Source: an uncultured virus (IMG/VR IMGVR_UViG_3300042888_001173) (Duplodnaviria; Heunggongvirae; Uroviricota; Caudoviricetes). From it: a stretch of 64,000 nucleotides of DNA. Numbering within the stretch: the first letter of the stretch is position 1; each line of letters opens with the position of its first letter. The position numbers and the translations under genes are program-made. Location of the stretch: the IMG/VR virus record IMGVR_UViG_3300042888_001173; one strand, 5' to 3'. Of the stretch, positions 9,491 to 33,296 are shown piece by piece. The notes beneath the pieces were generated by a model. It searched no databases. It worked only from the letters and a program-made list of their open reading frames with translations, and was not told where the DNA came from.

Positions 9491-9507
9491 AAATTCTGGC
9501 ATTTAAC

Positions 9508-12383: not shown

Positions 12384-12395
12384 TGTTATCTCCAA

Positions 12396-13028: not shown

Positions 13029-13169
13029 CGTGACTGCCTCTGTAGTATAGGTAGTATTTACATATCAAAGACACATGTTTAAAAATTTCTTACTATAGGA
13101 GAATTAATACAAGTTGATTCATAAATTTCGTTATTACAAGTTTTATCCGCTACTTTGTAAAACCCACAG

Positions 13170-15282: not shown

Positions 15283-15286
15283 GCAA

Positions 15287-15868: not shown

Positions 15869-15872
15869 AGTG

Positions 15873-16625: not shown

Positions 16626-16668
16626 TCAGTATTTATTATGTAACTCATGACGCCTGATTAAATAACAT

Positions 16669-17289: not shown

Positions 17290-17302
17290 GTATCAAGGTA
17301 AA

Positions 17303-17905: not shown

Positions 17906-18507
17906 TTCCTGTATCAATACCATTAATTTTTCCTAAGGTTGTACCCAATGACTGGGAAATATGGAATAAAGTATGGGAGAAAAATAAAAAATTTGTTCCG
18001 AAGTCATTGCAGACAAAAAACTTAGCACAAGCCTATTGGGTGGGATTTGATATCTATGTTAAACCAGGTATAGACTCAAATGATATTATGCCGTACACAT
18101 GTAAGAATGTAAACTGTCCTGAACTATTTCCATCATTGTTTGATCACTTAGATAAACTTCCTATTGAAGTACATGTAGTTCGGATGTTGCAAAGTTTCAC
18201 TAAGGTCTACGCTCATCAAGACTTTGCCTCAATTTCAGGATACAATTCAATAAGAAGTTTATTAACTGATAACAATCCAAAACAAACTTGGTGGTATGAA
18301 GATAGTAATACGAACAAGCACTATCTAAAATTACCGGAAGATACTAACACTTGGTGGTATGATGATGCAAAAGTAAAACACGGCACTGATTTTAATCCTC
18401 GATATAACAAACAACTAATTATGTATCAAGGACCTATAAAAGAATCTTTAAAATCTGTGTTAACAGATAGTATACAAAAATATTCAGATTACGTCATCTA
18501 TGTTTAA
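17902..18507 (+). CDS. putative Fe(II)/2OG-type oxygenase (family A)
   Basis: AHQD...KHG...K; C-terminal SIQKYSDYVI. Confidence 0.55.
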   Translation: MIPVSIPLIFPKVVPNDWEIWNKVWEKNKKFVPKSLQTKNLAQAYWVGFDIYVKPGIDSNDIMPYTCKNVNCPELFPSLFDHLDKLPIEVHVVRMLQSFTKVYAHQDFASISGYNSIRSLLTDNNPKQTWWYEDSNTNKHYLKLPEDTNTWWYDDAKVKHGTDFNPRYNKQLIMYQGPIKESLKSVLTDSIQKYSDYVIYV

Positions 18508-18544
18508 TAAAAATATAGGTAGCAATATTCTCTAAACAGCTTCT

Positions 18545-19081
18545 TTATCTACTTATTATATAAGGTGAAAGTTTTTCTAATATATTAGTTTTCACAAGTG
18601 ATCGTATACTTAAACACCAACGTCCGCTGTCAGTGCTGTAATTATGAACTGAATGTGGTATGTCTGTTCTTACCAGGCATAATCCTTTAATTTCAGTTTC
18701 TTCTATAATCTCAACTTGATCTGAAGTATAGAAAAAATAAGGAGTATTAGCAGTAGTCAATACCCTTTTAGGTGTACTTCCTTTTTTAATTGAGTACCAT
18801 TTCATAATAGAATTAGAACTCCCCCATGCATAATTAATAGCCCAACCGCCTGCATGATTATCTATATGAATATACGTTAAACCAGCAGGAGGACCGTAAA
18901 ATAAATTAATAAAGAGTGGGATATCTAGCGTAGATAAGAAATCAATAATCTCGGGTGATAGTATATCCTCTTTATTGAGAATCTTATGAGTTAACCAACC
19001 TGTACCTGAAACGTAATTTTCTTGTTTAAAATTTTCAACAATGATGTTCTTGTTAAAATCAATTAGGTAGTAGTTGTCCAT
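18545..19081 (-). CDS. putative Fe(II)/2OG-type oxygenase (family B)
   Basis: IHID...IPHSVHN...RWCLSIR. Confidence 0.6.
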   Translation of the reverse strand: MDNYYLIDFNKNIIVENFKQENYVSGTGWLTHKILNKEDILSPEIIDFLSTLDIPLFINLFYGPPAGLTYIHIDNHAGGWAINYAWGSSNSIMKWYSIKKGSTPKRVLTTANTPYFFYTSDQVEIIEETEIKGLCLVRTDIPHSVHNYSTDSGRWCLSIRSLVKTNILEKLSPYIISR

Positions 19082-19182
19082 TATAAAAATATTTATATAA
19101 AGCACCGGGTAGTATAGGATCTTGATCCTATACTTTTATCTAATAATTGATCAAAAAATAGTATAGCATCCTAATGTTAGTG

Positions 19183-19450
19183 CTATTCTAAACCTTTAAT
19201 GAGTGGATGAAACTCGCCGCCTATCAACATGTCTAATGGATGTTTCTTTCCAAAAAAATCATTAGTAACCCATGCATCTTCTTCTTCGATGTAATCGAAC
19301 CAAGGACTAAATCCTAGAACAACGTGTATACGTTGAAAGTTTTTTTCTTTACAGGAAATACTCGATGAGGTAGGTTTGTGTCCCAGCTATAGACATTTCC
19401 ATATTCTAAAAATTCAGGTTCTGAATTTTCCATTTGAAACAAACAATCTG
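19183..19450 (-). pseudogene. 5'-truncated, frameshifted oxygenase-like gene remnant
   Basis: YSWDTNLPHRVF continues in another frame as QRIHVVLGFSPWFDY...KGLE*. Confidence 0.65.
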
Positions 19451-19546
19451 TATTAGAGGATAGTAAACAAAAATATTCAGATTACGTCATTTACGTTTAA
19501 CAAGAAAAAAGGTAATCTTATATAATAATTATTTATTGGTAGATAA

Positions 19547-20254
19547 TTAAATTTCTGGACTCCAATAAATTGCTGAATCTTTATAATGTTCGGCAGAAGA
19601 TACAATTAAGTTTTGAAGATGTTGAGGAATTTCAGACGTGGTTTTGCCAGTGCTTACTATTACAGCAAGTCTTTTTGAACTGGGTATATTTTTATTCACA
19701 GCATGGATTGCTCTCACGTTATTGATATAAAATACTTGTTGCGGATTTGGAATATTAGCCGCATATTGTACATCTTGAATAAATTCCCAAGGTCCAAGAG
19801 GATCAATTGCTGATAGTAATTCTGAATGTGAATTGTGTGGAAGTTTTGTTGGTTTAATCAACAGAGAGTTTTCTAACTCTGTGTTTTCTAAATACATACG
19901 TAGTCCCCATTTATCAGGATCACGGTGCCAAAATCCTAATCCACGATGATTGTCTTTTACTGGTAGTAAAACAACAGAGTCGATTTCTGAAGTTGCTAAG
20001 TTGTATGCATCTCCAAAAAAAGAAGCTAATTGTGGAAATTCTTTATCAAAATTAAAACGCCATACTCTATCGTATTTTGCATATATGATAGTCCACGGAT
20101 ATATATCACCTGTTATATGTTTACTTGAATCTGGTCGAGATTGAATTGTTTGAGTAACATAAAATTTATGTACCCACGATAACAACTTTGTATAATCATA
20201 AGTTGGAAAATCTAGCGACACTAACGGTGTATATAAAATATCAATTGGCCTCAT
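19547..20254 (-). CDS. putative Fe(II)/2OG-type oxygenase (family A)
   Basis: WHRD...IHA...R; C-terminal LIVSSAEHYKDSAI. Confidence 0.55.
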   Translation of the reverse strand: MRPIDILYTPLVSLDFPTYDYTKLLSWVHKFYVTQTIQSRPDSSKHITGDIYPWTIIYAKYDRVWRFNFDKEFPQLASFFGDAYNLATSEIDSVVLLPVKDNHRGLGFWHRDPDKWGLRMYLENTELENSLLIKPTKLPHNSHSELLSAIDPLGPWEFIQDVQYAANIPNPQQVFYINNVRAIHAVNKNIPSSKRLAVIVSTGKTTSEIPQHLQNLIVSSAEHYKDSAIYWSPEI

Positions 20255-22897: not shown

Positions 22898-22971
22898 TGG
22901 TGCTCTAGCCAAGAATTGAACTTGAAATTCAGTCTTACCAAGACTGTGTAATACCATTTTACTACAAGAGC
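22898..22971 (-). tRNA. tRNA-Thr(GGT)
   Basis: Cloverleaf, CAGTC-TTGGTAA-GACTG, CCA. Confidence 0.9.
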
Positions 22972-22972
22972 G

Positions 22973-23047
22973 TGGTCCGGCCTACAGGAATCGAACCCAT
23001 ATTCACGGTGTAGAAGACCGCTGTATTATCCATTATACTAAGGCCGG
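22973..23047 (-). tRNA. tRNA-Arg(TCT)
   Basis: GCGGT-CTTCTAC-ACCGT, CCA. Confidence 0.93.
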
Positions 23048-23053
23048 ATAAAG

Positions 23054-23094
23054 AAAAACCCTGCCCTAAGTACTATGTCTTAGAGGGCAGGGCC
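23054..23094 (-). terminator. intrinsic terminator
   Basis: CCCTGCCCTCTAAG...CTTAGGGCAGGG followed by TTTTT. Confidence 0.75.
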
Positions 23095-23150
23095 GTGTTG
23101 TTGATGACAGACTATTTGGCTCATTATACTCCGCCTGTCAGGGAGAGTTG

Positions 23151-23585
23151 TTATTTTACATCGTACTCGTAGTTTACGGTGTCTAAATTTTCTCTAAAAA
23201 CTCCGGCGCCATTTTTGGTATGAAACTTCTTGGCCATATCGGTCTTTGGACTCAGAGTGACAAAGCGTTCTATGCTGGGAAATTGCTTTTGTATTTCTGC
23301 TACAGTTGCTCTCAGCAATTCTACACCAGCCCCCGGGGCGTAACTCCAAATGGTGTAGAAAATTGCTGCGGTTGGCACTTCCGTATCTTTGATCAAATCA
23401 TCGACATCTTCCGGTATGAAATCGTGTAAACTCACACATACCATAGCTCGAGGAATGTCATCAACTAGAGCACTCACAAACTTGTTCTTTCCTACCCTAA
23501 ACTCCTTAGGCAACTCAGGGCGAACAGGATCATCCTTTATGTAATCTAGGAGTGGGTCAGTGAGATTGGTGATAAAGGATAACAT
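23151..23585 (-). CDS. GNAT-fold protein resembling the malonyl-CoA decarboxylase catalytic domain
   Basis: AAIFYTIWSY..G.G..L....FVTLSP. Confidence 0.55.
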   Translation of the reverse strand: MLSFITNLTDPLLDYIKDDPVRPELPKEFRVGKNKFVSALVDDIPRAMVCVSLHDFIPEDVDDLIKDTEVPTAAIFYTIWSYAPGAGVELLRATVAEIQKQFPSIERFVTLSPKTDMAKKFHTKNGAGVFRENLDTVNYEYDVK

Positions 23586-23647
23586 TTTTTTCTTTCAGTT
23601 TATATGCGTACTTATGTCTTTTAGACAAAAAGACTGTTACAGTTTTA

Positions 23648-24226
23648 TTACGGTAGATATTCTACGTCCACTGCTAGGATAAATCTATAATCATTGCTTT
23701 GGACCACGCCCGGTCGATGCCATTGATTACTGGGATACAACAACCAACTGTAATCAGTAGGGCGAACAAAGAACTTTCCTTCGCCTTGGGGTCCATTTGG
23801 CGCCATTTCAGTTCCGCAATAATCACGGTCTTTTACATCCTCGGGAATATGCAGATAAAATATACCACTCAGCATCTTGGCATTTGGATTTGTAGGATGC
23901 CAATGATCGTGCCATAGCTTTTCACGATCTTCTACACCTTCTAGATTGGTCATAAATGCCCAGGCCATCATGTTATTGACTTTTACTTCTCGCCCAAGAT
24001 ACATAAACACACTGAACAAGAAACTCATACGGTACTTTAACCATACAGCTTCGGGTCTTGCAAATATGTTTTCTTGGGTTTGATACTTTGGACTATTTTT
24101 AAAATAGTTCCCATCGGCGACAATATTCTTTATAATGCCTATGGCAGTTGTATTATCTTCTTTACCGATCGTAGAACTAAAGTCAAATTTTCTAAAGGTA
24201 TCGTTTCTGTCAATAACTGTGTGCAT
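23648..24226 (-). CDS. 2OG-Fe(II) oxygenase-like protein
   Basis: WHDH...SGIFYL...WHRP...RF. Confidence 0.7.
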   Translation of the reverse strand: MHTVIDRNDTFRKFDFSSTIGKEDNTTAIGIIKNIVADGNYFKNSPKYQTQENIFARPEAVWLKYRMSFLFSVFMYLGREVKVNNMMAWAFMTNLEGVEDREKLWHDHWHPTNPNAKMLSGIFYLHIPEDVKDRDYCGTEMAPNGPQGEGKFFVRPTDYSWLLYPSNQWHRPGVVQSNDYRFILAVDVEYLP

Positions 24227-24230
24227 AATT

Positions 24231-24304
24231 TGGAGCGGGGTAACAGAATCGAACTGTCCGCATCAGATTGGAAATCTGAGGTATTACCACTATACGAACC
24301 CCGC
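24231..24304 (-). tRNA. tRNA-Gly(TCC)
   Basis: TCAGA-TTTCCAA-TCTGA, U73 discriminator, CCA. Confidence 0.93.
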
Positions 24305-24318
24305 ATTGTTATTTCTAT

Positions 24319-24504
24319 TTATTCGTCGTCTTCTGGAGGATTGGCCAAAGGTGAAGTTGAAGGCTTTTTCTTAGACCACATTGAATATGATTCTCCTTCG
24401 ACCCTACCACTTTGATTTGGTTTTAGTTGTTGAACTACACCACCTTTGGCTAGAAACTCAGCCATCGCTGCTTCTGTTGCCGCTTGATTTTCTGCTTTTG
24501 TCAT
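24319..24504 (-). CDS. small hypothetical protein
   Basis: 61 aa, EFLAKGG.V motif. Confidence 0.65.
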   Translation of the reverse strand: MTKAENQAATEAAMAEFLAKGGVVQQLKPNQSGRVEGESYSMWSKKKPSTSPLANPPEDDE

Positions 24505-24539
24505 TGTTGCCTTTTATAAAAAATTTGGTAGAAAACTGA

Positions 24540-25136
24540 CTAAATTATTAATTCAGTATTGAAACTAATAATTATTCGTTCGTCCGACTTATTCAACTCA
24601 GTGTCTGAACCATGTGGTAACCAGCTGGGAAATACTATTAATTTCCCAACAGTGGGTTCGAAACTCATTTTATTGTATGTATATGTTGTAAGATGTTTTT
24701 TAGGTAGATATTCTAAAAAAGGATTAACATTATTAAAAATAATTTTACTACTATTATTATCTACTTGCAAATACAATACGCCCGATATTAAACTAGAATA
24801 ATGAGTATGGGTTAATAATGCACTATCTTTATATTGAAAACTAGCCCAAGAATTACCTAGTTTACCACAGTTGTAACCAGATGTTTTTTCATATTCTAAC
24901 ACAATATCAGATAATGATGATAACATATTAGCACATGATTTTACATGTTGTTGAATGTCTTCTAATAATCTATTAGAAATATTAAATGTAGTAAACGATT
25001 TCCCAGTCATTGCCGGATAAGGTTTTTTAGGTAATCCTCGTATGTAAGTGACAATATCATTGCACTGAGTTACAGTCAAAAACTCTGAAACTTCAAAAAG
25101 TGAAATTGGAAATAGATTACATTTTGTTATTTTCAT
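24540..25136 (-). CDS. 2OG-Fe(II) oxygenase-like protein (TIGR02466-like)
   Basis: LFP, THTH..S.ISGVLY, FPSWLPH, ERIIISFN. Confidence 0.8.
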   Translation of the reverse strand: MKITKCNLFPISLFEVSEFLTVTQCNDIVTYIRGLPKKPYPAMTGKSFTTFNISNRLLEDIQQHVKSCANMLSSLSDIVLEYEKTSGYNCGKLGNSWASFQYKDSALLTHTHYSSLISGVLYLQVDNNSSKIIFNNVNPFLEYLPKKHLTTYTYNKMSFEPTVGKLIVFPSWLPHGSDTELNKSDERIIISFNTELII

Positions 25137-25149
25137 AAATTTAAAAAAT

Positions 25150-25226
25150 TGGTCGGAGTACAAGGATTCGAACCTTGGACCCCCTGGTCCCAAACCAGGT
25201 GCGCTACCAGACTGCGCCACACTCCG
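25150..25226 (-). tRNA. tRNA-Pro(TGG)
   Basis: CCTGG-TTTGGGA-CCAGG, CCA. Confidence 0.95.
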
Positions 25227-25228
25227 AA

Positions 25229-25378
25229 TTAATTGGGAATCATATGAGGAACATAGGGCACTGCTCTAGGACCGTATCTCTGTTGCAGAAGCTTCATTGC
25301 TTCCTGTGCTGTTTCTGCACCAACACGATCCTTGAATTCTTTGCCGTTGACTCTGATTGTTGCTTCAAATAATTTCAT
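25229..25378 (-). CDS. small hypothetical protein (49 aa, MKLFEATIRV...)
   Basis: ORF lying between two tRNAs. Confidence 0.55.
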   Translation of the reverse strand: MKLFEATIRVNGKEFKDRVGAETAQEAMKLLQQRYGPRAVPYVPHMIPN

Positions 25379-25383
25379 AATAT

Positions 25384-25459
25384 TGGTTGCAGGAGTCGGA
25401 GTCGAACCGACGATCTGAAGCTTATGAGACTTCCGAGATACCACCTTCTCCATCCTGCG
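25384..25459 (-). tRNA. tRNA-Met(CAT), initiator-like
   Basis: C1:A72 mismatch; anticodon arm GAAGT-CTCATAA-GCTTC. Confidence 0.9.
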
Positions 25460-25462
25460 ATA

Positions 25463-25575
25463 ACTTTATTAAAACAAACTAAGGCATATTAAAAGTTATA
25501 GCTATGCTAAAGAGCTCCGGGGAAGCCAAACCTAATCAAGTATTTCTACAAGATTCTAATTTGTTCTAATAAAGT
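25463..25575 (-). ncRNA. long-stem/variable-loop cassette A
   Basis: 20-bp stem ACTTTATTAGAACAAATTAG / TTAGTTTGTTTTAATAAAGT with G-U pairs on the minus strand. Confidence 0.6.
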
Positions 25576-25779
25576 GTCCGGCTACTTACACCACATAAGC
25601 CCCGAACTGAGCGGTTACTCTGTCCATAACATTTATTCTTCTGGAAAGGTGCTAAACCTCACCCAATGCGTTCTAGTATCCCTTAACTCAGAGAACTAAT
25701 GGTCATAGCATTGAATACCCGGCGCTCTCTATGGTGACTGCCCCACCCCCGTTTATTACGTGTACGGGATCACGGGTTT

Positions 25780-26352
25780 TTAAACTAAACCTTCTGATTG
25801 CAATGTTGCCACTACTTCTTCACTGAGTGGAATCTCTGTTTTGATATTTAACTCAAGTACTTCATCGTTGAGTTTCTGCTTTTGTTTCTTGAGATTTTTA
25901 ATCTCTGTACTAATCACATCTAGCTGTTCGTGACCGATGACATTAGTAGACACTGTGTCACTAAATCCATAGATACGGCTACGGCTACTTTCGCTCTTGT
26001 CGTTGCGAATCTTGTCCAACTTACCGTTGATCACGGCAAGATTAGTTACAGGATCTACTACAAGACCTTCAAGTTGAGCAACACGTTTGTCCACAAAGGC
26101 AGCAGTGGCCAATTTCAAATCAATGCCGCTTTGTGCGTTGGCACTGCCCACAAGACCACGAATGTTATACAAGGCCAACAGCAGGCGTTGTCTCCGACTG
26201 TCGTTGTTAAACAGCGTATCGTTGGCATTCTTTAGTTCTACTGCTACATCTTGAAATTCATTGAGATCAATCGATGTTGTGATTTTAATGCCCTTGATAG
26301 CATCATTGATGCTGTTTTGTAGGGCGCTGGCTTTTCTAAGTGAAATATTCAT
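25780..26352 (-). CDS. coiled-coil hypothetical protein
   Basis: 190 aa from MNISLRKA. Confidence 0.7.
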   Translation of the reverse strand: MNISLRKASALQNSINDAIKGIKITTSIDLNEFQDVAVELKNANDTLFNNDSRRQRLLLALYNIRGLVGSANAQSGIDLKLATAAFVDKRVAQLEGLVVDPVTNLAVINGKLDKIRNDKSESSRSRIYGFSDTVSTNVIGHEQLDVISTEIKNLKKQKQKLNDEVLELNIKTEIPLSEEVVATLQSEGLV

Positions 26353-26581
26353 CTCGTTGTCCTTTACGTTTTTTTGGTAATTTATTAATATAATCTTTAT
26401 AGGTATACTTGCCTTCTTCAATCTCTCGAAGTGCTGTAGAAATAAATGTTTTGCCTGGTTCAGCGACTTTGGGCATTGAACCGTTTTTTAACTCTCGGGC
26501 TCGCTGACTGGCAACTAGTACCAAGTCAAACCTATTGCCTATCTGTTCTACTGCTAATTCTGATGTTAATCTTGATGTCAT
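26336..26581 (-). CDS. rpoZ: RNA polymerase omega subunit
   Basis: AVEQIGNRFDLVLVASQRAREL...ALREIEEG. Confidence 0.92.
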   Translation of the reverse strand: MTSRLTSELAVEQIGNRFDLVLVASQRARELKNGSMPKVAEPGKTFISTALREIEEGKYTYKDYINKLPKKRKGQRDEYFT

Positions 26582-26599
26582 ATTTTCCTCAGGTTAAAA

Positions 26600-26826
26600 A
26601 ACGGTTCAGTGAAAGGTCAAGTAAAAGACTGGACAATGTGCAAATAACAATGCTCAATATACAATCCACAGGGGTCACTATATTTCCGGTAATCAATAAA
26701 CAAATATCTTTTGGGGCCGGAACACAATGACACGGATACTTTTTCAGAGTATTTGGAGTTAAGTTCCATTTGGCATGAAGCCAAACAGTAGTGTCTTCTC
26801 TCATCTACCTTTCACTTTGCCGGTTG
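26600..26826 (-). ncRNA. candidate structured RNA upstream of rpoZ
   Basis: Closing stem AGTGAAAGGT/ACCTTTCACT with internal hairpins; own promoter. Confidence 0.55.
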
Positions 26827-26848
26827 TGTATTGCTACACAACAAAACT

Positions 26849-26877
26849 ATTATAGCACTATACAAGATGTTTGTCAA
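26849..26877 (-). promoter_or_regulatory. sigma70 consensus promoter
   Basis: TTGACA-17bp-TATAAT. Confidence 0.85.
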
Positions 26878-26893
26878 CATCTTTTGACTATAT

Positions 26894-26967
26894 TGGTGCC
26901 CCTACACAGAATCGAACTGCAAACTGCGGATTACAAAACCGCCGTTATACCATTTAACTATAAGGGC
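26894..26967 (-). tRNA. tRNA-Thr(TGT)
   Basis: Loop TTTGTAA, CCA. Confidence 0.9.
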
Positions 26968-26973
26968 AATGCT

Positions 26974-27049
26974 TGGTGGAGGATAACGGATTCGAACCGT
27001 TTGCTCCTGGTTGCAAACCAGGTGTGTTAGCCAAGTATACCAATCCCCC
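26974..27049 (-). tRNA. tRNA-Ala(TGC)
   Basis: CCTGG-TTTGCAA-CCAGG, G3:U70, CCA. Confidence 0.93.
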
Positions 27050-27055
27050 AATATT

Positions 27056-27346
27056 TCACTTACCTTCGTTGAGTTTATACTCTTGAAGTTTTTCTTTAAA
27101 TGCTTCTTCGGTTAGTCCGTGCCAACCGATGCACTTGCCGGTTGGCGAACGACCGCAACCGCAAGATCCGATTTTACTTTCATCTTCTTTTACTCGTACT
27201 TGCATAGTATCAATCCTGTTAAATTCTTCATCTTCTCGAACTGCATCTTGCACTTCTTGAGGACTCTTGCGAAAAATTGTATCCCATCTATTGTCAAACT
27301 CACGCTGGCTGACACTAAAGGGTCTTGCTTTAGATCCCTTGCTCAT
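27056..27346 (-). CDS. small protein with CDGSH-like Fe-S motif
   Basis: CGCGRSPTGKCIGWH. Confidence 0.65.
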   Translation of the reverse strand: MSKGSKARPFSVSQREFDNRWDTIFRKSPQEVQDAVREDEEFNRIDTMQVRVKEDESKIGSCGCGRSPTGKCIGWHGLTEEAFKEKLQEYKLNEGK

Positions 27347-27347
27347 A

Positions 27348-27560
27348 TCAACTTCCTGAAGATACGGTCCCAGATGCATGGGTGGTAAAATTACCATTGC
27401 CCGGTTTGCGTGTTTCACGCTTGGGTTGAACAGCGGCACATAGCTCTGCATCAATCATGGCACGTTTCCACTCACCTCGCTTGTGAGGATCTAGAACTCT
27501 ACTCATTGCTAGACTTGCTTTAGTCAAAGATGACATCTTGTAATTTGGACCTGGTTTCAT
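27348..27560 (-). CDS. hypothetical protein
   Basis: 70 aa, AAGGA SD. Confidence 0.65.
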   Translation of the reverse strand: MKPGPNYKMSSLTKASLAMSRVLDPHKRGEWKRAMIDAELCAAVQPKRETRKPGNGNFTTHASGTVSSGS

Positions 27561-27581
27561 TATGTTTCCTTTATTAAAATC

Positions 27582-27785
27582 TGGTTGCTCTGACGTCCCC
27601 CGGCGGTAATTATAGTACAGAAAGATATGACGCTATCATACCTCTCACTCGTACCTTCCACCCGCTTCCCGACAGGGACCGTTCTCGCATTGCTAGCGGC
27701 CTTTGGGTTTAAAGACTACCACCCGTAGTTGTCACACTACTTCTCATCGTGCGGGTCACACTATCCGAAGACACTCGGAACGTTC
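27582..27785 (-). ncRNA. candidate ~200-nt structured RNA ending in ACCA
   Basis: GC-rich non-coding block with several hairpins directly 3' of tRNA-Ser. Confidence 0.5.
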
Positions 27786-27873
27786 TGGCGGAGCATGTAG
27801 GAATCGAACCTACTCACCACTTGCGCAGTGACAGATTAGCAATCTGTTGCCTTAACCGGTCGGCCAATGCTCC
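27786..27873 (-). tRNA. tRNA-Ser(GCT)
   Basis: ACAGA-TTGCTAA-TCTGT, long variable arm, GCCA end. Confidence 0.95.
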
Positions 27874-27874
27874 A

Positions 27875-28015
27875 TTATCTTGTTGCTTTACGTAGTAATT
27901 TATACCAGTAATATCTCACACCACGCCAAGTCGGCGTAAAATTCCAATTGACAGCAAACCCCACTTTGTTAGGAATATTTCGGTATGCCTGGTCTATAAT
28001 TTCTTTGGGTATCAT
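27875..28015 (-). CDS. small hypothetical protein (46 aa, MIPKEIIDQAY...)
   Basis: Read manually, between tRNAs. Confidence 0.45.
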   Translation of the reverse strand: MIPKEIIDQAYRNIPNKVGFAVNWNFTPTWRGVRYYWYKLLRKATR

Positions 28016-28034
28016 ACAGTCTTCTTTCTACTAG

Positions 28035-28109
28035 TGGTACCTGGTCACGGTTTCGAACCGCGGACCCTCTCGGTGTAAACGAGACGCTCTACCCCTGAGC
28101 TAACCAGGC
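28035..28109 (-). tRNA. tRNA-Val(TAC)
   Basis: TCTCG-TTTACAC-CGAGA, CCA. Confidence 0.95.
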
Positions 28110-28119
28110 AAAATTCTTT

Positions 28120-28206
28120 ACCATATTGAAACACACTAACTACCACGGTATGTACTAAAGTTCAATGAACCGTTACAACCCTATCTTTAATATGTTTCAA
28201 TATGGT
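28120..28206 (-). ncRNA. long-stem/variable-loop cassette B
   Basis: ACCATATTGAAACATATTAA / TTAGTGTGTTTCAATATGGT; begins with the ACCA of tRNA-Leu. Confidence 0.65.
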
Positions 28207-28286
28207 GCGCAAGGAGAGACTCGAACTCTCAATCCTTTCGGCAATGGCTTCTAAGACCATCGTGTATACCATTCCACCACTTGCGC
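28203..28286 (-). tRNA. tRNA-Leu(TAG)
   Basis: ATGGT-CTTAGAA-GCCAT, variable arm, CCA. Confidence 0.95.
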
Positions 28287-28339
28287 AAAATCTTACTTTA
28301 AATTTTTAATGAACATTACTAATTGCTTAGTATGTAACT

Positions 28340-28368
28340 ATTATATAGTCATTACGTTATCTTGTCAA
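28340..28368 (-). promoter_or_regulatory. sigma70 consensus promoter
   Basis: TTGACA-17bp-TATAAT. Confidence 0.85.
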
Positions 28369-28389
28369 CAGTTATTTTAAAATATTTTT

Positions 28390-28411
28390 TGGTGCCGTCC
28401 TTAGGATTGAA
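28390..28411 (-). pseudogene. tRNA 3'-end remnant fused to the end of a CDS
   Basis: TTCAATCCTAAGGACGGCACCA (T loop, acceptor strand, CCA). Confidence 0.55.
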
Positions 28412-28964
28412 TTTCATTTGTTATTAGATCCTCAAGTTTTGGATTACCATTAAATCTAATGCATACTGTTATTCTAGGATTATTAAAATCTACATTCACA
28501 ATATTATGTGGGATTGAACTGTTTACTAATGTCCATTCATTCTTGCCTTCTAGTTCTGTAGCAAGACATACATCATCTTCTTTAAAATAATAAGCATCTG
28601 CTACTTTAGGAATAACATTTGATTTTGTATTATAAAAACACATCCTTGTCCCTTCAAACCCCACGAGAGGTAAGTTGAAGCTTGCATATCTCAATGTTGA
28701 TTTACCATCAGCATGAATGGCCTGGGAATACGTGTGTTTAAATATTGAAAAATATTCAATCGGTGGAAATTTTAGTTTACTAACTAGCAACGAACTAAGT
28801 TTTAATATTTCTAAATCTTTATAAAAATCTTTTTTAAAATACATCATATATAAAGGACTAGACAATTGTTCAAAAATTTTATATTTTGGTATGAATTCTT
28901 TCAAAAAATAGTTAGTCCAATATACATTATCTATTTCTGGAAAGTGTTTATAAAAGTTTTGCAT
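28401..28964 (-). CDS. putative Fe(II)/2OG-type oxygenase (family B)
   Basis: IHAD...IPHNIVN...RITVCIRF; AT-rich. Confidence 0.6.
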   Translation of the reverse strand: MQNFYKHFPEIDNVYWTNYFLKEFIPKYKIFEQLSSPLYMMYFKKDFYKDLEILKLSSLLVSKLKFPPIEYFSIFKHTYSQAIHADGKSTLRYASFNLPLVGFEGTRMCFYNTKSNVIPKVADAYYFKEDDVCLATELEGKNEWTLVNSSIPHNIVNVDFNNPRITVCIRFNGNPKLEDLITNEIQS

Positions 28965-29009
28965 GTTGGTATTTATTAATTATGTAGAGTTCTAAGAGTC
29001 CAACTTAGT

Positions 29010-29084
29010 TGGTGCAACCTCTAGGAATCGAACTCCTATTCGCACTTTGGAAGAGAGCTGTATTCTCTATTATACAAAGGCGGC
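29010..29084 (-). pseudogene. degenerate/chimeric tRNA
   Basis: 3' 24 nt match tRNA-Phe (1 mismatch); acceptor, T and anticodon stems mispaired. Confidence 0.7.
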
Positions 29085-29088
29085 AATG

Positions 29089-29652
29089 TTATGCAATAAT
29101 TGCTAAATTTTTATAACGTTTGAGACTTTTTTCTATCAGCGTCTGATGCCTTGCTGTATCAATAAATCCTCTAATATAGATAATCTTTCTGCCCGGATCA
29201 TCCTTGAGCATGTGTAGCCCTGCTGTGGTATTTAAAAGATAACAACAAGGCACAGATGGCAATTCTGCTAACTTAAACGTGCCTCCACTTTTAACATAAA
29301 GTACATCAGTGGACCCTTCTAGGACTAGACGATACCCTGCAGGTTCGTTATCTAAAATATTAGTGTATTCTCCTTCTTCAAATTTCATATTTGGATATAC
29401 ATCGTAATGAGGTGACACAGCTTGTCTTTGCTCTTTATAATATACATTTGTTACTTTGCTTATAGGCAACTGATCTAGTACAGATTTTAAAGTATCATCA
29501 ACTGTTTCAGTAATTCTAGAAGTATCCCAATACTGTTGATACTCTGCAGTTTTTATGTAGGTTAGGTTGTTGATGACGTTAATTGTAGACTGTATTTTTG
29601 ATGTATCAATCTTTGGAATTTCAATATCAATTGGAAGGAATAATATGTTCAT
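29089..29652 (-). CDS. putative Fe(II)/2OG-type oxygenase (family A)
   Basis: MNILFLPIDIEIP, PHYD...LH...RK, C-terminal H..LIEKSLKRYK. Confidence 0.55.
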   Translation of the reverse strand: MNILFLPIDIEIPKIDTSKIQSTINVINNLTYIKTAEYQQYWDTSRITETVDDTLKSVLDQLPISKVTNVYYKEQRQAVSPHYDVYPNMKFEEGEYTNILDNEPAGYRLVLEGSTDVLYVKSGGTFKLAELPSVPCCYLLNTTAGLHMLKDDPGRKIIYIRGFIDTARHQTLIEKSLKRYKNLAIIA

Positions 29653-29690
29653 ATAATATTTATTAAATTCCACCATTCTCGCATTTGTCT

Positions 29691-29766
29691 TGGTGCAACC
29701 TCCAGGAATCGAACCTGGTTCAACGGTTCTTCAAACCGCCGCTATGACCACATCAGCTAAAGTTGC
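29691..29766 (-). tRNA. tRNA-Phe(GAA)
   Basis: GCGGT-TTGAAGA-ACCGT, CCA. Confidence 0.92.
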
Positions 29767-29767
29767 A

Positions 29768-30172
29768 TTAATCCTTTATAGTAGTATCAACTACATCAAC
29801 ACTGACACTTTCGGAATAGTATCCATTGCTGGAACCATACCACCGAACAGTTACAAATCCCTTGCGTGTAGCAAACTTGTAAAATGTCCATGTGTAAGAC
29901 TCGTCTCCTGTAGCTTCACCTTCATAGTCAGAAACTTCTTCAGCTTCAACTAGTGGTGCTCCCACAAGGTCATCGAGGTCACCACATATGTCTTCTATGT
30001 AAACACTTTCGCAACAATCTTGGTGATGTTGGAATCTTACATAGTTTGTCTTGGACAGATACAGTGTCAATACTGAGTCGTCTGCTTCTGCCTTGTACAA
30101 TGATCGTCCTAGTAATTCTTCGAACTTACGAACAGATCCCTTTAATGTGTTTAATATTTTTACTTGTTCCAT
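29768..30172 (-). CDS. hypothetical phage protein
   Basis: HHQDCCESV, WTFYK, RWYGSSNGYYSE. Confidence 0.75.
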   Translation of the reverse strand: MEQVKILNTLKGSVRKFEELLGRSLYKAEADDSVLTLYLSKTNYVRFQHHQDCCESVYIEDICGDLDDLVGAPLVEAEEVSDYEGEATGDESYTWTFYKFATRKGFVTVRWYGSSNGYYSESVSVDVVDTTIKD

Positions 30173-30188
30173 GATATTTCTACTTTGT

Positions 30189-30262
30189 TGGGTTGAACCG
30201 GGGAATCGAACCCTCTCTAACTGTTTCACAGACAGTTGTGCAGCCACTACACTAGGAACAAC
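30189..30262 (-). tRNA. tRNA-His(GTG)
   Basis: ACTGT-CTGTGAA-ACAGT, G-1:C73; two U-U mismatches in the acceptor stem. Confidence 0.85.
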
Positions 30263-30268
30263 ATTGAT

Positions 30269-30436
30269 CTATGTTTTAATCTTCTCCAATGCATCTTTAC
30301 GCATTAGAAATTTTCTATCTTGAATGGTCTTGCTGACCAACAGGTACTCAATGCCGTCAATTACTTGTACAGCCTTGGGATCATTACAGACCACTCGCTC
30401 ATTGTTGAATCTATTTTTAAATGTAATTGTTTTCAT
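30269..30436 (-). CDS. small hypothetical protein (55 aa, MKTITFKNRF...)
   Basis: Read manually; AAGGA SD. Confidence 0.6.
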   Translation of the reverse strand: MKTITFKNRFNNERVVCNDPKAVQVIDGIEYLLVSKTIQDRKFLMRKDALEKIKT

Positions 30437-30452
30437 AGCATTTTCCTTTATA

Positions 30453-30529
30453 TGGCCGGACCGGAGAGATTCGAACTCCCAACCTCAAGTTTCGAAGACT
30501 TGCTTTCTATCCAATTGAATTACGGTCCG
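30453..30529 (-). tRNA. tRNA-Arg(TCG)
   Basis: CAAGT-CTTCGAA-ACTTG, CCA. Confidence 0.92.
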
Positions 30530-30536
30530 ATAAATT

Positions 30537-30610
30537 TGGCAGAGGGTAAAGGAATCGAACCTTTAATAGCGGAATCAAAATCCGCGGTTATACCATTTAA
30601 CTAACCCCCA
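30537..30610 (-). tRNA. tRNA-Gln(TTG)
   Basis: GCGGA-TTTTGAT-TCCGC, GCCA end. Confidence 0.92.
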
Positions 30611-30618
30611 ACAGAAAC

Positions 30619-30694
30619 TGGTCTCCCTACTAGGATTCGAACCTAGACCACACGGCCCCAAACCGCGGATGCAACCAGATAACACTTTAGAGAG
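30619..30694 (-). tRNA. tRNA-Pro(TGG), second divergent copy
   Basis: CGCGG-TTTGGGG-CCGTG, CCA. Confidence 0.9.
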
Positions 30695-30701
30695 ATAATT
30701 G

Positions 30702-30903
30702 AATTTGTAAGTAGTAGAGCCACTTTAATCTCTACCATTCACCCGATTGCACTGGTCCGGACGGGAGGTGGTACATCACTTGGAATACTTGACATAGGTG
30801 CTCCGCTGCTTTTACGGGACTCGAACCCGCCCTACTTTTGCACTAGGTTGACCTTCGAAGAATCTTCCTAGCGAGTCTTTCTCTTGCTGACACTTACAAA
30901 ACT
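30702..30903 (-). ncRNA. candidate ~200-nt structured RNA with internal T-loop
   Basis: Closing stem TTTGTAAGTG/TACTTACAAA, internal CGGG-TTCGAGT-CCCG. Confidence 0.6.
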
Positions 30904-30978
30904 TGGTGGTAACGGCTGGATTCGAACCAGCACCTTGCTCCGTATGAAGGAGGTGCACGACCATTATGCTACGTTACC
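30904..30978 (-). tRNA. tRNA with CAT anticodon (elongator Met or lysidine Ile2)
   Basis: Loop TTCATAC, paired G1:C72, CCA. Confidence 0.88.
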
Positions 30979-31063
30979 ATATAAAAACACACTCAAGTCC
31001 GCGGCTCGGAAGGCACTATACCCGCGATGATCTATGATCAGGCCTAATGTGTTTTTATATGGT
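30976..31063 (-). ncRNA. long-stem/variable-loop cassette C
   Basis: ACCATATAAAAACACATT / AGTGTGTTTTTATATGGT. Confidence 0.65.
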
Positions 31064-31168
31064 GTCGCTACCCTCTAGCGGTCAGGCCTACTCTTGCGAC
31101 TTCTCATCCTCCGGTCACGACATTGTGTATGACTAGTACACCTGTTTCGATCACATCTTCTGATACTA

Positions 31169-31253
31169 ACCATAGAAAAACACACTAGTCGGAAACGACT
31201 TAGAGACCTACTCGCCCACAGTCACGAAGGCTTCTAATGTGTTTGTCTATGGT
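31169..31253 (-). ncRNA. long-stem/variable-loop cassette D
   Basis: ACCATAGACAAACACATTAG / CTAGTGTGTTTTTCTATGGT; begins with the ACCA of tRNA-Lys. Confidence 0.65.
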
Positions 31254-31325
31254 AGGAGCACCGGGACTCGAACCCGGAACTGGCAGATTAAAAGTCTGCT
31301 GTGATAACCATTTCACTATACTCCC
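31250..31325 (-). tRNA. tRNA-Lys(TTT)
   Basis: GCAGA-CTTTTAA-TCTGC, CCA. Confidence 0.95.
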
Positions 31326-31328
31326 ATA

Positions 31329-31403
31329 TGGTCCACGCTCTGAGAATCGAACTCAGTTAGTCCGGTTAAGAGCCGGGTACTTCGCCACTAAAGTTTAGCG
31401 TGG
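31329..31403 (-). tRNA. tRNA-Lys(CTT)
   Basis: Loop CTCTTAA, CCA. Confidence 0.88.
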
Positions 31404-31506
31404 ATGGATCGTAAATATTTTCTTTTACGTGCCATCCAGGACCATACGGGGGTCTAGGATGACACTAGAGTTTACCTCGTTTCATGTCATTCTCCATTTT
31501 AAAAAT

Positions 31507-31580
31507 TGGTTCCCAGAGCAAGAATCGAACTTGCGAAGACCGGTTATCAGCCGATTATTATACCATTTAATTATCCGGGA
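31507..31580 (-). tRNA. tRNA-Ile(GAT)
   Basis: ATCGG-CTGATAA-CCGGT, CCA. Confidence 0.92.
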
Positions 31581-31584
31581 AAAT

Positions 31585-31674
31585 TGGCGGAAGTAGTAGG
31601 ATTCGAACCCACGGACCCTTTCGAGCCTTCAGTTTTCAAGACTGCTGCCTTAAGCCATGCTCAGCCATACTTCC
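31585..31674 (-). tRNA. tRNA-Ser(TGA)
   Basis: Loop CTTGAAA, long variable arm, GCCA end. Confidence 0.95.
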
Positions 31675-31742
31675 ATATTAGGTGCAGGGCTTCCACCTAC
31701 TCCCACATCGCTTTAAAGTCTGCGTGTCCAAGACTGGTTGAT

Positions 31743-31819
31743 TGGTACCCCTGGGCAGATTCGAACCGCCATCCAGCAGATTTTAAGTCTACCCGCACTA
31801 CCAATTAGCGTACAGGGGT
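31743..31819 (-). tRNA. tRNA with TAA anticodon (Leu), short variable loop
   Basis: GTAGA-CTTAAAA-TCTGC, 77 nt, CCA. Confidence 0.85.
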
Positions 31820-31823
31820 ATAT

Positions 31824-31901
31824 TGGAATAGGGAGTGGGATTCGAACCCACGGGTTTACAGTTTTGCAGACTGTTGCATTGGGCCTCTCTGCCATCCCTA
31901 T
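31824..31901 (-). tRNA. tRNA-Cys(GCA)
   Basis: ACAGT-CTGCAAA-ACTGT, U73, CCA. Confidence 0.93.
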
Positions 31902-31907
31902 ATGGTG

Positions 31908-31999
31908 TGGTACCAGCGGAGGGAATCAAACCCTCTCAAGAACGCTAATCTGGCGCTAAAAGTCTTATAAGGACTCTCTGACTGTCAAGTCTCGCTGGC
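31908..31999 (-). tRNA. atypical tRNA with TAT anticodon (Ile), long variable arm
   Basis: GCCAGCG/CGCTGGT+ACCA, GAGTC-CTTATAA-GACTT, 4-nt D loop. Confidence 0.7.
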
Positions 32000-32002
32000 A
32001 TA

Positions 32003-32076
32003 TGGAGCGGGATAGGAGAATCGAACTCCTGACTAAACCTTGGCAAGGTTTCGTTTGACCATTAAACTAATCCCGC
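32003..32076 (-). tRNA. tRNA-Gly(GCC)
   Basis: AAACC-TTGCCAA-GGTTT, TCCA end. Confidence 0.95.
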
Positions 32077-32083
32077 GGTATAT

Positions 32084-32158
32084 TGGTACACGATACGAGA
32101 ATCGAACTCGTCTTTCCGCCTTGAAAGGGCAGCGTCCTAACCGATAGACGAATCGTGC
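32084..32158 (-). tRNA. tRNA-Glu(TTC)
   Basis: CTGCC-CTTTCAA-GGCGG, CCA. Confidence 0.93.
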
Positions 32159-32166
32159 AAATTGTT

Positions 32167-32240
32167 TGGCGTACCTCCAGGGACTCGAACCCCGACGAAC
32201 AGTTTTGGAGACTGTGATGCTGCCATTACATTAGAGATAC
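32167..32240 (-). tRNA. tRNA-Trp(CCA)
   Basis: ACAGT-CTCCAAA-ACTGT, GCCA end. Confidence 0.93.
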
Positions 32241-32246
32241 ATTGTC

Positions 32247-32322
32247 TGGCTCCCCGAGTACGGATCGAACGTACGACATCTTCGTTAACAGCGAAGCGCA
32301 ACTACCTCTGTGCTATCGGGGA
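32247..32322 (-). tRNA. tRNA-Asn(GTT)
   Basis: CTTCG-CTGTTAA-CGAAG, GCCA end. Confidence 0.93.
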
Positions 32323-32328
32323 ATAAAC

Positions 32329-32404
32329 TGGCGCCTCGTAGGGGAGTCGAACCCCTGTATTCCGCTAGACAGGCGGATATAATAGACCGTTATATGAACG
32401 AGGC
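32329..32404 (-). tRNA. tRNA-Asp(GTC)
   Basis: TCCGC-CTGTCTA-GCGGA, GCCA end. Confidence 0.92.
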
Positions 32405-32410
32405 AAAACT

Positions 32411-32499
32411 TGGTGGAAGTGGTAGGATTCGAACCTACAATGTTTCTTATGTGGCGGATTTACAGTCCGTTGCCTTCAACCAATTCAGCGCACACTTCC
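32411..32499 (-). tRNA. tRNA-Tyr(GTA)
   Basis: Loop CTGTAAA, variable arm, CCA. Confidence 0.93.
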
Positions 32500-32507
32500 A
32501 TAAATTG

Positions 32508-32622
32508 TAAACACACTCTCCGCTATGCTTTTAGACAGCGTCAAGAGCTGAATGAAGAATGTGTGTATTAAAACATTCTAAACTACTTAGTCTGACTGTT
32601 CGTAAAGAATGCTTTAATACGC
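32508..32622 (-). ncRNA. two adjacent long-stem/variable-loop cassettes (F1 32508-32567, F2 32563-32622)
   Basis: ACACATTCT/AGAGTGTGT and GTATTAAAGCATTCT/AGAATGTTTTAATAC stems. Confidence 0.55.
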
Positions 32623-32726
32623 TAGGGTTTTTTATCTCACAAAAGAGACTTCATCGCCTAGGCCGCCCGTTTACAACTGTTTATCGTGTGTTGCGAGGAC
32701 CTCGTTTCCCCTACCACGTTGCAGTA

Positions 32727-32879
32727 CTAGCGGGCATTTGGCCTACTTTCCTGCTTGTTTATAGCTCGATGATACTGTGCCACACGTTTCACCTTATTAT
32801 GGATCAGTTTCAAAAACTGATCCTTAGTAAGAGTGTGCGTCACTGTCCATTCTGCTTCTTTAATCTTTTTCTCTGTCAT
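32727..32879 (-). CDS. small basic protein (50 aa, MTEKKIKEAEW...), first ORF after the attenuator
   Basis: AAGGAACA-ATG; read manually. Confidence 0.55.
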   Translation of the reverse strand: MTEKKIKEAEWTVTHTLTKDQFLKLIHNKVKRVAQYHRAINKQESRPNAR

Positions 32880-32892
32880 TGTTCCTTAAAAC

Positions 32893-32925
32893 AAAAAACC
32901 CCAGGAGTTTTAATTCCCAGGGTCC
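32893..32925 (-). terminator. intrinsic terminator of the putative attenuator
   Basis: GACCCTGGGA-loop-TCCTGGGGTT followed by TTTTGTTT. Confidence 0.8.
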
Positions 32926-32951
32926 TTGAAGTTTGCGGTGTATGTTTTACT

Positions 32952-33095
32952 TTACACTACGTCCTCCCGGACCCTTGAAATCTCTGGTGTACGATCATAT
33001 GATAAACTTCCACCATTAATCGATAACCAAGAGCAGGCTATTACACCTACCTGTTTGGGCATCGTATTAAACTGATGTCTGTTAAATGATTTCAT
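32952..33095 (-). CDS. putative leader peptide (47 aa) of the tRNA operon
   Basis: MKSFNRHQFNTMPKQVGVIACSWLSINGGSLSYDRTPEISRVREDVV*, between promoter and terminator; AAGGA upstream. Confidence 0.65.
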   Translation of the reverse strand: MKSFNRHQFNTMPKQVGVIACSWLSINGGSLSYDRTPEISRVREDVV

Positions 33096-33143
33096 TTGCT
33101 TTCTTTTTCCTTTTATAAACAGCACCTTGCTGTCTATGTTTTA

Positions 33144-33172
33144 ATTATACAGTTATTTAGTTCTCTTGTCAA
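33144..33172 (-). promoter_or_regulatory. sigma70 consensus promoter heading the main tRNA array
   Basis: TTGACA-17bp-TATAAT. Confidence 0.88.
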
Positions 33173-33296
33173 CCTCTATTTGCCGTTTTGGCAAAATAAA
33201 TTTTGACGCCTTCCTAACCAACTGTATGTATTGTAATGTCTTTTTATTTATATGTCAACAAAAATATGATCTGATTATGTGGCTTTTTTACCACAT

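Follow-up and report, generated by a model that had tools for sequence, protein, structure and literature searches.

The tRNA clusters of phages also encode stable RNAs that are not tRNAs, such as species 1 and 2 of T4 and the T5 RNAs. Stems processed by RNase III are known from the early-mRNA sites of T7, and the exchange of modules from the PeSL cassettes of T4-type phages, where short common repeats and promoters accompany the shuffling of protein genes. CRISPR arrays, TIGR arrays and RNA anti-CRISPRs provide examples of a constant scaffold joined to a variable part and of small phage RNAs that arise by processing of a precursor, and attC sites carry an R box, GTTRRRY.

The consensus for Escherichia coli RNase III is WNAGWGNNCWUNNN^NAWGNNCWCUNW (PMC4357697). 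In vivo, the D/D' positions are reported to be A-U or U-A, without the G-C antideterminant, and G-C is preferred between the two cuts (PMC6212723); a role in T4 tRNA maturation is ascribed to RNase III (PMC4810235).

In this work, we analysed a 64,000-nt stretch of DNA (hereafter the window; IMG/VR record IMGVR_UViG_3300042888_001173) from a large lake phage, in which six hairpin cassettes lie between tRNA genes. Our results suggest that phages hold a large and so far unstudied pool of small RNAs, as opposed to CRISPR-like guides; the analysis contributes the consensus register of the stems, the portability of and selection on their cargo, and negative tests for guides.

Hairpins of the tRNA operon

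The operon hosting the hairpins (22898-32499) comprises 29 tRNA genes, all on the minus strand, together with a decayed, tRNA-Arg-like copy around 29010-29084 on the same strand. An Rfam scan of the window matched tRNAs alone, with no YrlA match at E<=10. The six hairpins described in the earlier note, named A to F here and all read on the minus strand, were recovered where that note had placed them, with folding z-scores against dinucleotide shuffles of -4.1, -7.5, -5.2, -4.9, -3.0 and -5.7, respectively; every hairpin was less stable on the plus strand (z -0.8 for A). The 106 stem pairs on the minus strand divided into 93 Watson-Crick, 11 G-U, no A-C and 2 other pairs, and this excess of G-U over A-C on the tRNA strand bears out the proposed selection on the stems at the RNA level. 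The six hairpins are real and act at the RNA level.

Stems measure 20 bp in A to D, 15 in F and 11 in E, where a double-cleavage site of RNase III spans 20-22 bp, or roughly two helical turns. Three had been said to start on ACCA ends, and they do: B (28120-28206) on that of tRNA-Leu(tag), D (31169-31253) on that of tRNA-Lys(ttt), and C (30976-31063) on that of a non-tRNA segment. Predicted cuts fall at 28199/28198 and 28126/28125 in B, releasing a putative RNA of 73 nt (consensus fit p=0.015); at 31056/31055 and 30982/30981 in C (74 nt, p=0.010); and at 31246/31245 and 31175/31174 in D (71 nt, p=0.038). The 3' end of C covers, as had been claimed, the first 3 nt (5' GGU) of tRNA-Met, and the predicted cut would leave a 3-nt leader on this tRNA; in D, a 4-nt trailer would remain on tRNA-Lys. 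The segment between D and C (31064-31168, minus strand) is a conserved non-tRNA RNA with matches in 14 records including the window; since its flanks, the right arm of D and the left arm of C, can form the same type of stem, it would be freed by the same cuts.

Cassette F (32563-32622) has a 26-nt insert, with predicted cuts at 32616/32615 and 32568/32567, a released RNA of 48 nt and a borderline consensus fit (p=0.097). Upstream of tRNA-Tyr, E (32506-32567) keeps the inner half-stem only, and its predicted 5' end (32567, with the register read from sequence) is the base next after the right-hand cut of F. Cassette A (25463-25575), directly upstream of tRNA-Met(cat) at 25384-25459, combines a diverged stem with a 73-nt insert; the family register predicts a released RNA at 25567-25469, with a non-significant fit (p=0.52). 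Divergence of the stem is greatest in A and E, both of which were missed by the family motif detector; insert A recurs in a canonical stem in locus L204, and L011 and L017 carry insert E in a stem of the F type. The six loops matched separate families in BLAST searches against the phage loci collected, in agreement with the view that they are mutually unrelated; A and E have only a short GCAUAGC motif in common.

A cassette family across phage tRNA operons

From 403 fetched loci and the window we compiled 394 distinct cassettes with about 250 insert families, confined to phage tRNA operons; the constant scaffold with a variable insert envisaged in the earlier note is thereby supported. The stem, of about 20 bp, is paired from position -9 to +8, and the core and outer positions are partly imposed by the search patterns, with family members that are not independent. 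Among the 339 cassettes that have an upstream tRNA, 219 start exactly on its NCCA. Inserts range from 20 to 130 nt. Outer pairs are compensatory across the family, one position is U-G on the tRNA strand in 274 of 394 cassettes, and a conserved unpaired position, not G-U, occurs in 223 of 394.

Cultured phages gave no match beyond tRNAs. About a dozen isolate-prophage matches shared one common insert inside a different outer stem, and four GTDB pattern matches corresponded to three short MAG contigs; one of the loci, L155, packs 9 tRNAs into 1.5 kb, and the GTDB matches are therefore probably binned phage DNA. In Rfam scans of the relatives, the matches listed were tRNA, GOLLD, and sub-threshold YrlA or tmRNA scores, and among them none of the roughly 250 insert families appeared. 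GOLLD occurs in the relatives' tRNA clusters, and in L029 a cassette follows its 3' end.

Fit of the stem to the RNase III consensus

The family stem fits the E. coli consensus in both half-sites. The best register, with a 2-nt stagger, is identical in 382 of 394 cassettes, and the mean score over all 394 is 17.5, against 13.5 +/- 1.5 for pair-shuffled stems. In a motif-free test on the window and 12 protein-anchored loci, a score of at least 20 of 32 was reached by 45 of the 82 long stems that lie within tRNA clusters, vs 8 of 70 outside, and the offset chosen was the same in 38 of 45 family-like stems. The D/D' pairs are A-U or U-A in 394/394 cassettes at one position, where the pattern imposes it, and in 372/394 at the other, where it does so partly. 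At two consensus positions most cassettes deviate (G present in 68/394, C in 32/394), the G-C preference between the cuts is not followed, the pairs at -2 and -3 being mainly A-U or U-A, and the consensus is weak enough for AU-rich stems to match it partly. This fit supports the earlier suggestion of release by RNase III, with cleavage predicted from sequence.

Phage-encoded RNase III was found in none of five related virus records, and the nuclease would therefore be the host's. Four RNA runs consisted of assembled contigs, among which no common ends were seen. Such contigs preserve neither ends nor strand nor level; those of relatives span cassette C (X5 record 28) and a portion of B, and gaps in this coverage carry no weight as evidence.

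Selection, structure and portability of the inserts

Inserts are conserved far beyond adjacent silent sites, which are near saturation. Insert C and its counterpart in L056, on the same contig as L006, are separated by 2 differences in 50 nt, and insert F is identical in L013, while neighbouring four-fold sites are identical at 56 of 137 positions (L007) and 26 of 68 (L013), although high identity could reflect recent transfer. Of 216 insert pairs, 50 carry compensatory changes, and these come from 11 of 17 families; the inner hairpin of C covaries. Inserts also retain their sequence on a change of slot: 16 of 17 families have members with different upstream neighbours, and 90 insert families, in 118 cassettes, occupy the Lys(ttt) slot.

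These observations weigh on the possibility, which we consider quite unlikely, that the stems merely punctuate or pace tRNA processing, hiding the CCA until they are cut, with tops that are tolerated filler or decayed tRNA pieces. The location of stems on CCA ends, the RNase III role in T4 tRNA maturation (PMC4810235), the T-arm sequence common to some inserts and tRNAs, and the weak folding of inserts by energy (mean z -0.46 vs -0.27 for reverse complements) would all suit mere pacing. Conservation and covariation where silent sites approach saturation do not, nor does the keeping of sequence across slots; furthermore, 14 of the 28 tRNA spacers in the window measure <=12 nt, all without a stem, tandem tRNAs having no need of one, and near-empty stems are almost absent, with just 2 family-like stems having <=24 nt between cores.

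A T-loop motif was detected in 25 of 246 insert families against 1.0 expected, and in none of the six window inserts; a CsrA-decoy motif was not enriched in the inserts (54 vs 59.7). In a further reading, the working RNA would be the uncut hairpin, as with Y RNAs, its constant stem binding protein and its variable top acting as effector. In favour of this, the T-arm precedes the D-arm in two insert families (L159, L178), in L165 a nearby element with a non-family stem scored 35.6 bits on YrlA (cut-off 69), and the conserved mismatch at the centre may mark the stem for a protein. We judge this reading decidedly improbable: no TROVE/Ro60 match was found in five related records (three of them at least 90% complete), the CCA of the tRNA would stay paired, the consensus fit spans both half-sites, and the window inserts have no T-loop.

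Search for guide and antisense targets

No protospacer or antisense matches above chance were obtained, contrary to the guide or antisense array proposed in the earlier note: one of 246 insert families had an antisense match, against 1.2 for shuffles. The core of C matched metagenomes 68 times, in 50 cassettes and 18 short (13-20 nt) matches. The cellular-genome searches, which like those of plasmids left out insert A, gave 3, 3 and 1 marginal matches in 401 genomes of the order of genome G008, where about 4 were expected, and a loose whole-genome pattern search did no better than its control. The best plasmid-borne matches are from Burkholderiales (AhpD 52%, DnaK 71%), a weak hint to this order as host, and given this weakness the tests on the 401 genomes may have missed the true host. 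The Rep_3-like frame seen in loop B turned out to be a 16-codon stop-to-stop frame only; relatives vary all three hairpin-loop bases between invariant pairing bases, and loop B had no plasmid match at E<=10.

A CRISPR-like array of captured spacers, or a DNA-level mobile element of MITE or attC type, would account for constant arms, a variable insert and many slots, and the short palindromic AT runs found at the ends might be taken for target duplications. This reading is largely refuted and, in our estimation, hardly credible. Besides the chance-level antisense matches, inserts covary internally, are structured, under selection and of widely varying length, and across phages the loops form covarying structured families, an outcome that the earlier note itself had named as contrary to guides. 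The U-G position of the stem lies on the tRNA strand, as does the G-U bias, outer pairs are compensatory, the GTTRRRY box is absent from the six stems, Pfam identified no cas family among 18 nearby ORFs, and no CRISPR-repeat family was matched in Rfam. One insert family is reminiscent of the hairpin in type I-E CRISPR repeats, and it had no repeat match in Rfam either.

Release by RNase III could instead yield base-pairing sRNAs acting on host mRNAs through short single-stranded seeds, which is unlikely. Unpaired stretches are often invariant within families, e.g., a 13-nt run in C, which also served as the pattern to fetch many C members, and short seeds would escape BLAST. Against this, complementarity to one Burkholderiales 16S, to part of a 23S locus and to 2807 phage tRNAs was not in excess, anti-SD motifs were not enriched (10 vs 13), the insert sequences lack a U-tailed terminator at their end, and T-loops and three-way junctions are better suited to protein binding.

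Discussion

Taken together, our results make it probable that the inserts are a swappable, structured RNA cargo excised by RNase III, with protein-binding decoys as their likely nature. Each hairpin would be a standard expression cassette within a long phage tRNA transcript, its stem being a putative site for host RNase III, whose outer half usually consists of the CCA end of the tRNA, or tRNA-like RNA, that precedes it. Two staggered cuts would free this CCA together with a trailer of 4 nt, leave a short leader on the next tRNA, and release the insert as an RNA of 48-99 nt, whose ends pair in a 9-10-bp stem that leaves a 2-nt 3' overhang and which we infer to accumulate stably. The inserts themselves are folded RNAs under selection, and, as the arms are common to all cassettes, arm-to-arm recombination may move them between slots and phages. 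Their job is most likely protein binding, as decoys or aptamers, with host defence or RNA-metabolism proteins among the conceivable targets and about one family in ten appearing to mimic the tRNA elbow. More tentatively, and with somewhat less than even confidence, lake phages may keep a recombining library of hundreds of RNA aptamers, in an RNase III cassette on tRNA CCA ends, each of which would neutralise or hijack a separate host protein, as the RNA counterpart of variable anti-defence protein islands.

If this is true, phage tRNA operons double as platforms expressing many fast-turning small structured RNAs missed by current annotation, which would offer a natural design for aptamer release in bacteria and a handle on the old question of what role the tRNA clusters of phages give to their non-tRNA RNAs. 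Owing to the fixed stem, the insert set can be listed easily and with exact predicted ends, so that every insert is open to synthesis and to screens for protein partners or anti-defence activity.

Comparison with known systems

The cassettes share a constant scaffold with a variable part, and the processing of small phage RNAs out of a precursor, with CRISPR arrays, TIGR arrays and RNA anti-CRISPRs, a group in which a vsgRNA preprint (10.64898/2026.06.01.729453) also falls. They differ from these in inserts that are folded, under selection and anywhere from about 26 to over 100 nt long, with no targets found and no repeat family matched. A few inserts resemble the bacterial Y RNA YrlA (RF02553; PMC4201824) in their long terminal stem and tRNA-elbow module. 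However, Ro60 was not found in five records, no window insert matches, and the scores in relatives (35.6 and 27.4 bits) stand far below the cut-off. In being about 20 bp long, AU-rich and matched to the consensus with a 2-nt stagger, with the enclosed RNA cut out, the stem is akin to RNase III processing stems such as the stalks of rRNA operons, and it has an AGUGUG/CACAC element in common with one rRNA stalk of the G008 order; in contrast to those stems, it is near-invariant, reused many times per operon, takes a tRNA CCA as its outer half and holds hundreds of exchangeable inserts. The T4 species, the T5 RNAs and GOLLD (RF02032) are likewise structured non-coding RNAs co-transcribed with tRNAs, but each is a single conserved family, whereas the cassette stem carries about 250. 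Finally, short common repeats let phages shuffle modules in PeSL cassettes as well, and while these involve promoters and protein genes, the cassettes described here shuffle RNA inserts inside one transcript.

Cassettes in phage tRNA operons

All six hairpins described in an earlier note are present on the minus strand of the window (A, 25463..25575; B, 28120..28206; C, 30976..31063; D, 31169..31253; E, 32506..32567; F, 32563..32622), where they fold far above shuffles; a Rfam search of the window gave no match to them. The selection at the RNA level proposed there agrees with the stem pairs, 93 of 106 being Watson-Crick, 11 G-U, none A-C and 2 other. As also described, three stems lie on ACCA ends, those of tRNA-Leu (B), tRNA-Lys (D) and a non-tRNA RNA (C), and the stem of C runs into the first bases of the next gene, tRNA-Met. 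The hairpins are thus real, RNA-level elements, and are more organised than had been recognised.

Three stem patterns had abundant matches in IMG/VR but matched only 4 stretches in GTDB, on 3 short MAG contigs. Among the matches listed and loci fetched by a protein, 403 loci and the window yielded 611 cassettes on the tRNA strand. The constant scaffold with a variable insert seen in the window extends to this whole family: its 394 distinct cassettes share the consensus ACCAUAU-W-x-AAACACAUU, insert, AGUGUGUUU-x-W-AUAUGGU, and BLAST groups their inserts into 250 clusters, of which 178 have a single member, a rough count since variant stems missed by the detector link some clusters. One stem position is a U-G pair in 274 of the 394, position x is unpaired in 223, and the outer pairs display compensatory changes. 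Where a tRNA lies upstream, 219 of 339 cassettes start exactly on its NCCA; where one lies downstream, 84 of 368 overlap its first three bases. Cassettes occur in records of about 160-170 kb and also of about 350 kb, and 83 of the 110 long cassette loci have a protein in common with the window. Literature searches of open PMC and bioRxiv returned no description of the family. PMC10085705 has no bearing on it. In a viral RNA survey of 10,006 candidates (PMC10690425), the stem words are absent from the six supplement files searched; single inserts may be among the candidates in the other files, which include the two largest.

Genomic context and neighbouring RNAs

The window belongs to a large uncultured phage, whose near-identical and related contigs are found in IMG/VR records of up to 353 kb. 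Its minus strand encodes 29 tRNAs (22898 to 32499). Host-like genes for IF-1, RNA polymerase omega and ClpP lie near the tRNA genes, and AhpD and DnaK have their best plasmid-borne matches in Burkholderiales, a weak hint of the host. Ahead of the operon, 32880-33180 (minus strand) has a sigma-70-like promoter (TTGACA-17-TATAAT), a leader ORF of 47 codons and a strong terminator, an arrangement resembling an attenuator. On the same strand we observed a decayed tRNA-Arg(tct) copy (29010-29084; 76% identity to 22973-23044, under the tRNA cut-off) and a 19-bp inverted repeat (26474-26611) whose span takes in the omega-like gene's start (26581); RNA contigs of relatives cover the stretch homologous to this repeat. 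A low-GC island (9038-20254) contains desaturase-like, acetyltransferase-like and 2OG-oxygenase-like ORFs, named by eye.

Several conserved minus-strand RNAs accompany the cassettes. The RNA at 30695-30900 (about 206 nt, between tRNA-Met and tRNA-Pro) contains a T-loop and is closed by a long stem; it has no Rfam match but BLAST matches in 81 records, some perhaps to the T-loop only. A structured RNA of about 211 nt (27575-27785) follows tRNA-Ser(gct), with matches in 42 records, and in many relatives cassette B directly follows an RNA of this type. Upstream of cassette A lies an RNA of about 210 nt (25576-25785; 61 records) that matched nothing in Rfam or cultured phages, while one of about 123 nt (32623-32745; 51 records) adjoins F upstream, where the tRNA array begins, and one of 68 nt (31675-31742; 14 records) separates tRNA-Leu(taa) from tRNA-Ser(tga). 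Just upstream of the two tRNA-Lys genes, 31404-31505 begins with an ORF of six codons (MKRGKL), preceded by a strong ribosome-binding site, and continues as a conserved structured RNA. It has matches in 100 records and may act as a leader that senses lysine or translation.

The stem as a predicted RNase III site

Judged against the Escherichia coli consensus WNAGWGNNCWUNNN^NAWGNNCWCUNW (given in PMC4357697), the cassette stem has the sequence of an RNase III site. Because circularity was to be limited, a motif-free hairpin finder scoring every register was applied to the window and to 12 of 34 protein-fetched loci (non-redundant, with tRNA clusters). Long stems reached at least 20 of 32 consensus positions in 45 of 82 cases inside tRNA clusters vs 8 of 70 outside, and 38 of 45 family-like stems picked the same register offset. 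In the collected family, one register was picked by 382 of 394 cassettes, with a mean score of 17.5 vs 13.5 +/- 1.5 for pair-shuffled stems, a comparison that carries no p-value because the cassettes are related and partly pattern-selected. Among the window cassettes scored, the fit was p=0.010 for C, 0.015 for B, 0.038 for D, 0.097 for F and 0.52 for A. In the chosen register both D/D' positions are A-U or U-A, a preference reported in vivo (in PMC6212723); the G-C preference between the cuts is absent, two consensus positions are mostly missed, and part of the outer half-site is the tRNA's own C-A.

Cutting as predicted would leave 4 nt as an upstream trailer and 3 nt as a leader of tRNA-Met; the right-hand cut of F, in this same register, would make the 5' end of E. 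A search of five related records found no RNase III gene, therefore the enzyme would be the host's. In four RNA runs, relatives' contigs, which show neither ends nor strand, cover the tRNAs, several RNAs next to them and cassette C; lakes were the main source of RNA runs with small shares of the window. In one related locus (L029, 11936-12577), three to four cassettes are chained with non-tRNA RNAs in between, and alternative arm pairings would free inserts and spacers alike.

Inserts as probable exchangeable cargo

The inserts are selected and would be the cargo of the cassettes. Insert C matches that of another phage at all but 2 of 50 bases, where only 56 of 137 silent sites are identical, and insert F is unchanged in a phage with 26 of 68 identical, although recent transfer could add to this identity. 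Across 17 insert families with at least 4 members, 50 of 216 predicted pairs (11 families) show compensatory change and 19 a break, unpaired stretches are often invariant, and the inner hairpin of C covaries in a 22-sequence alignment; judged by energy alone, the inserts fold weakly (mean z -0.46). Of 246 insert families, 25 contain a T-loop, vs 1.0 expected, and 32 contain CAUAG, vs 14.4 expected.

Inserts also change position. The C insert is found behind tRNA-Lys, -Glu, -Thr, -Val, -Gln or a non-tRNA RNA across phages, that of A is held by a canonical stem in related locus L204, and that of E occupies F's slot in loci L011 and L017. More than one upstream neighbour was found for 16 of the 17 families, and as many as 90 insert families are represented among the 118 cassettes in the tRNA-Lys(ttt) slot.

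That the stems purely punctuate tRNA processing is improbable: half of the tRNA spacers of the window (14 of 28) need no stem. Since, in addition, only 2 family-like stems have 24 nt or fewer between cores (the collection patterns demanded at least 20 nt), the stem seems to be there for its insert.

The earlier proposal of a guide array was rejected, as inserts are folded and selected and protospacer-type matches did not exceed chance in phage loci, plasmids or 401 genomes. In 2.45 Mb of phage loci, antisense matches involved 1 of 246 families vs 1.2 for shuffles, and sense matches were mostly more cassettes or tRNA T-arms. Against plasmids and phages, loops C and D reached only E>=0.8; against 401 genomes from the order of genome G008, marginal matches numbered 3 for C and D, 3 for E and F, and 1 for B, about 4 being expected; insert A was compared with phages and the fetched loci only. 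The 68 metagenome matches to the C core comprised 50 cassettes and 18 of only 13-20 nt. The Rep_3-like frame read in loop B found no support, B having no match among plasmids. Guides or DNA elements are very improbable.

Comparison with known systems

Taken together, these sequence comparisons make RNase III release of a selected, swappable cargo likely. With moderate confidence, we favour released inserts acting as protein-binding decoys over seed-pairing sRNAs; the latter, which would equally be released by RNase III and act through short seeds, are unlikely, as the inserts are no more complementary to rRNA or tRNA than expected. An uncut hairpin serving as a Y-RNA-like tether is improbable. 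Two insert families do place the T-arm before the D-arm, as YrlA does. Elements with this order, with YrlA scores below threshold, were also observed in relatives (L165, 9782-9886; L385, 117-204), and no Ro60 was found in their records where searched. RNase III acts in T4 tRNA maturation (according to PMC4810235). In the cassette stem a known signal is put to a new use; what had not been described is the exchangeable library of RNA cargo.
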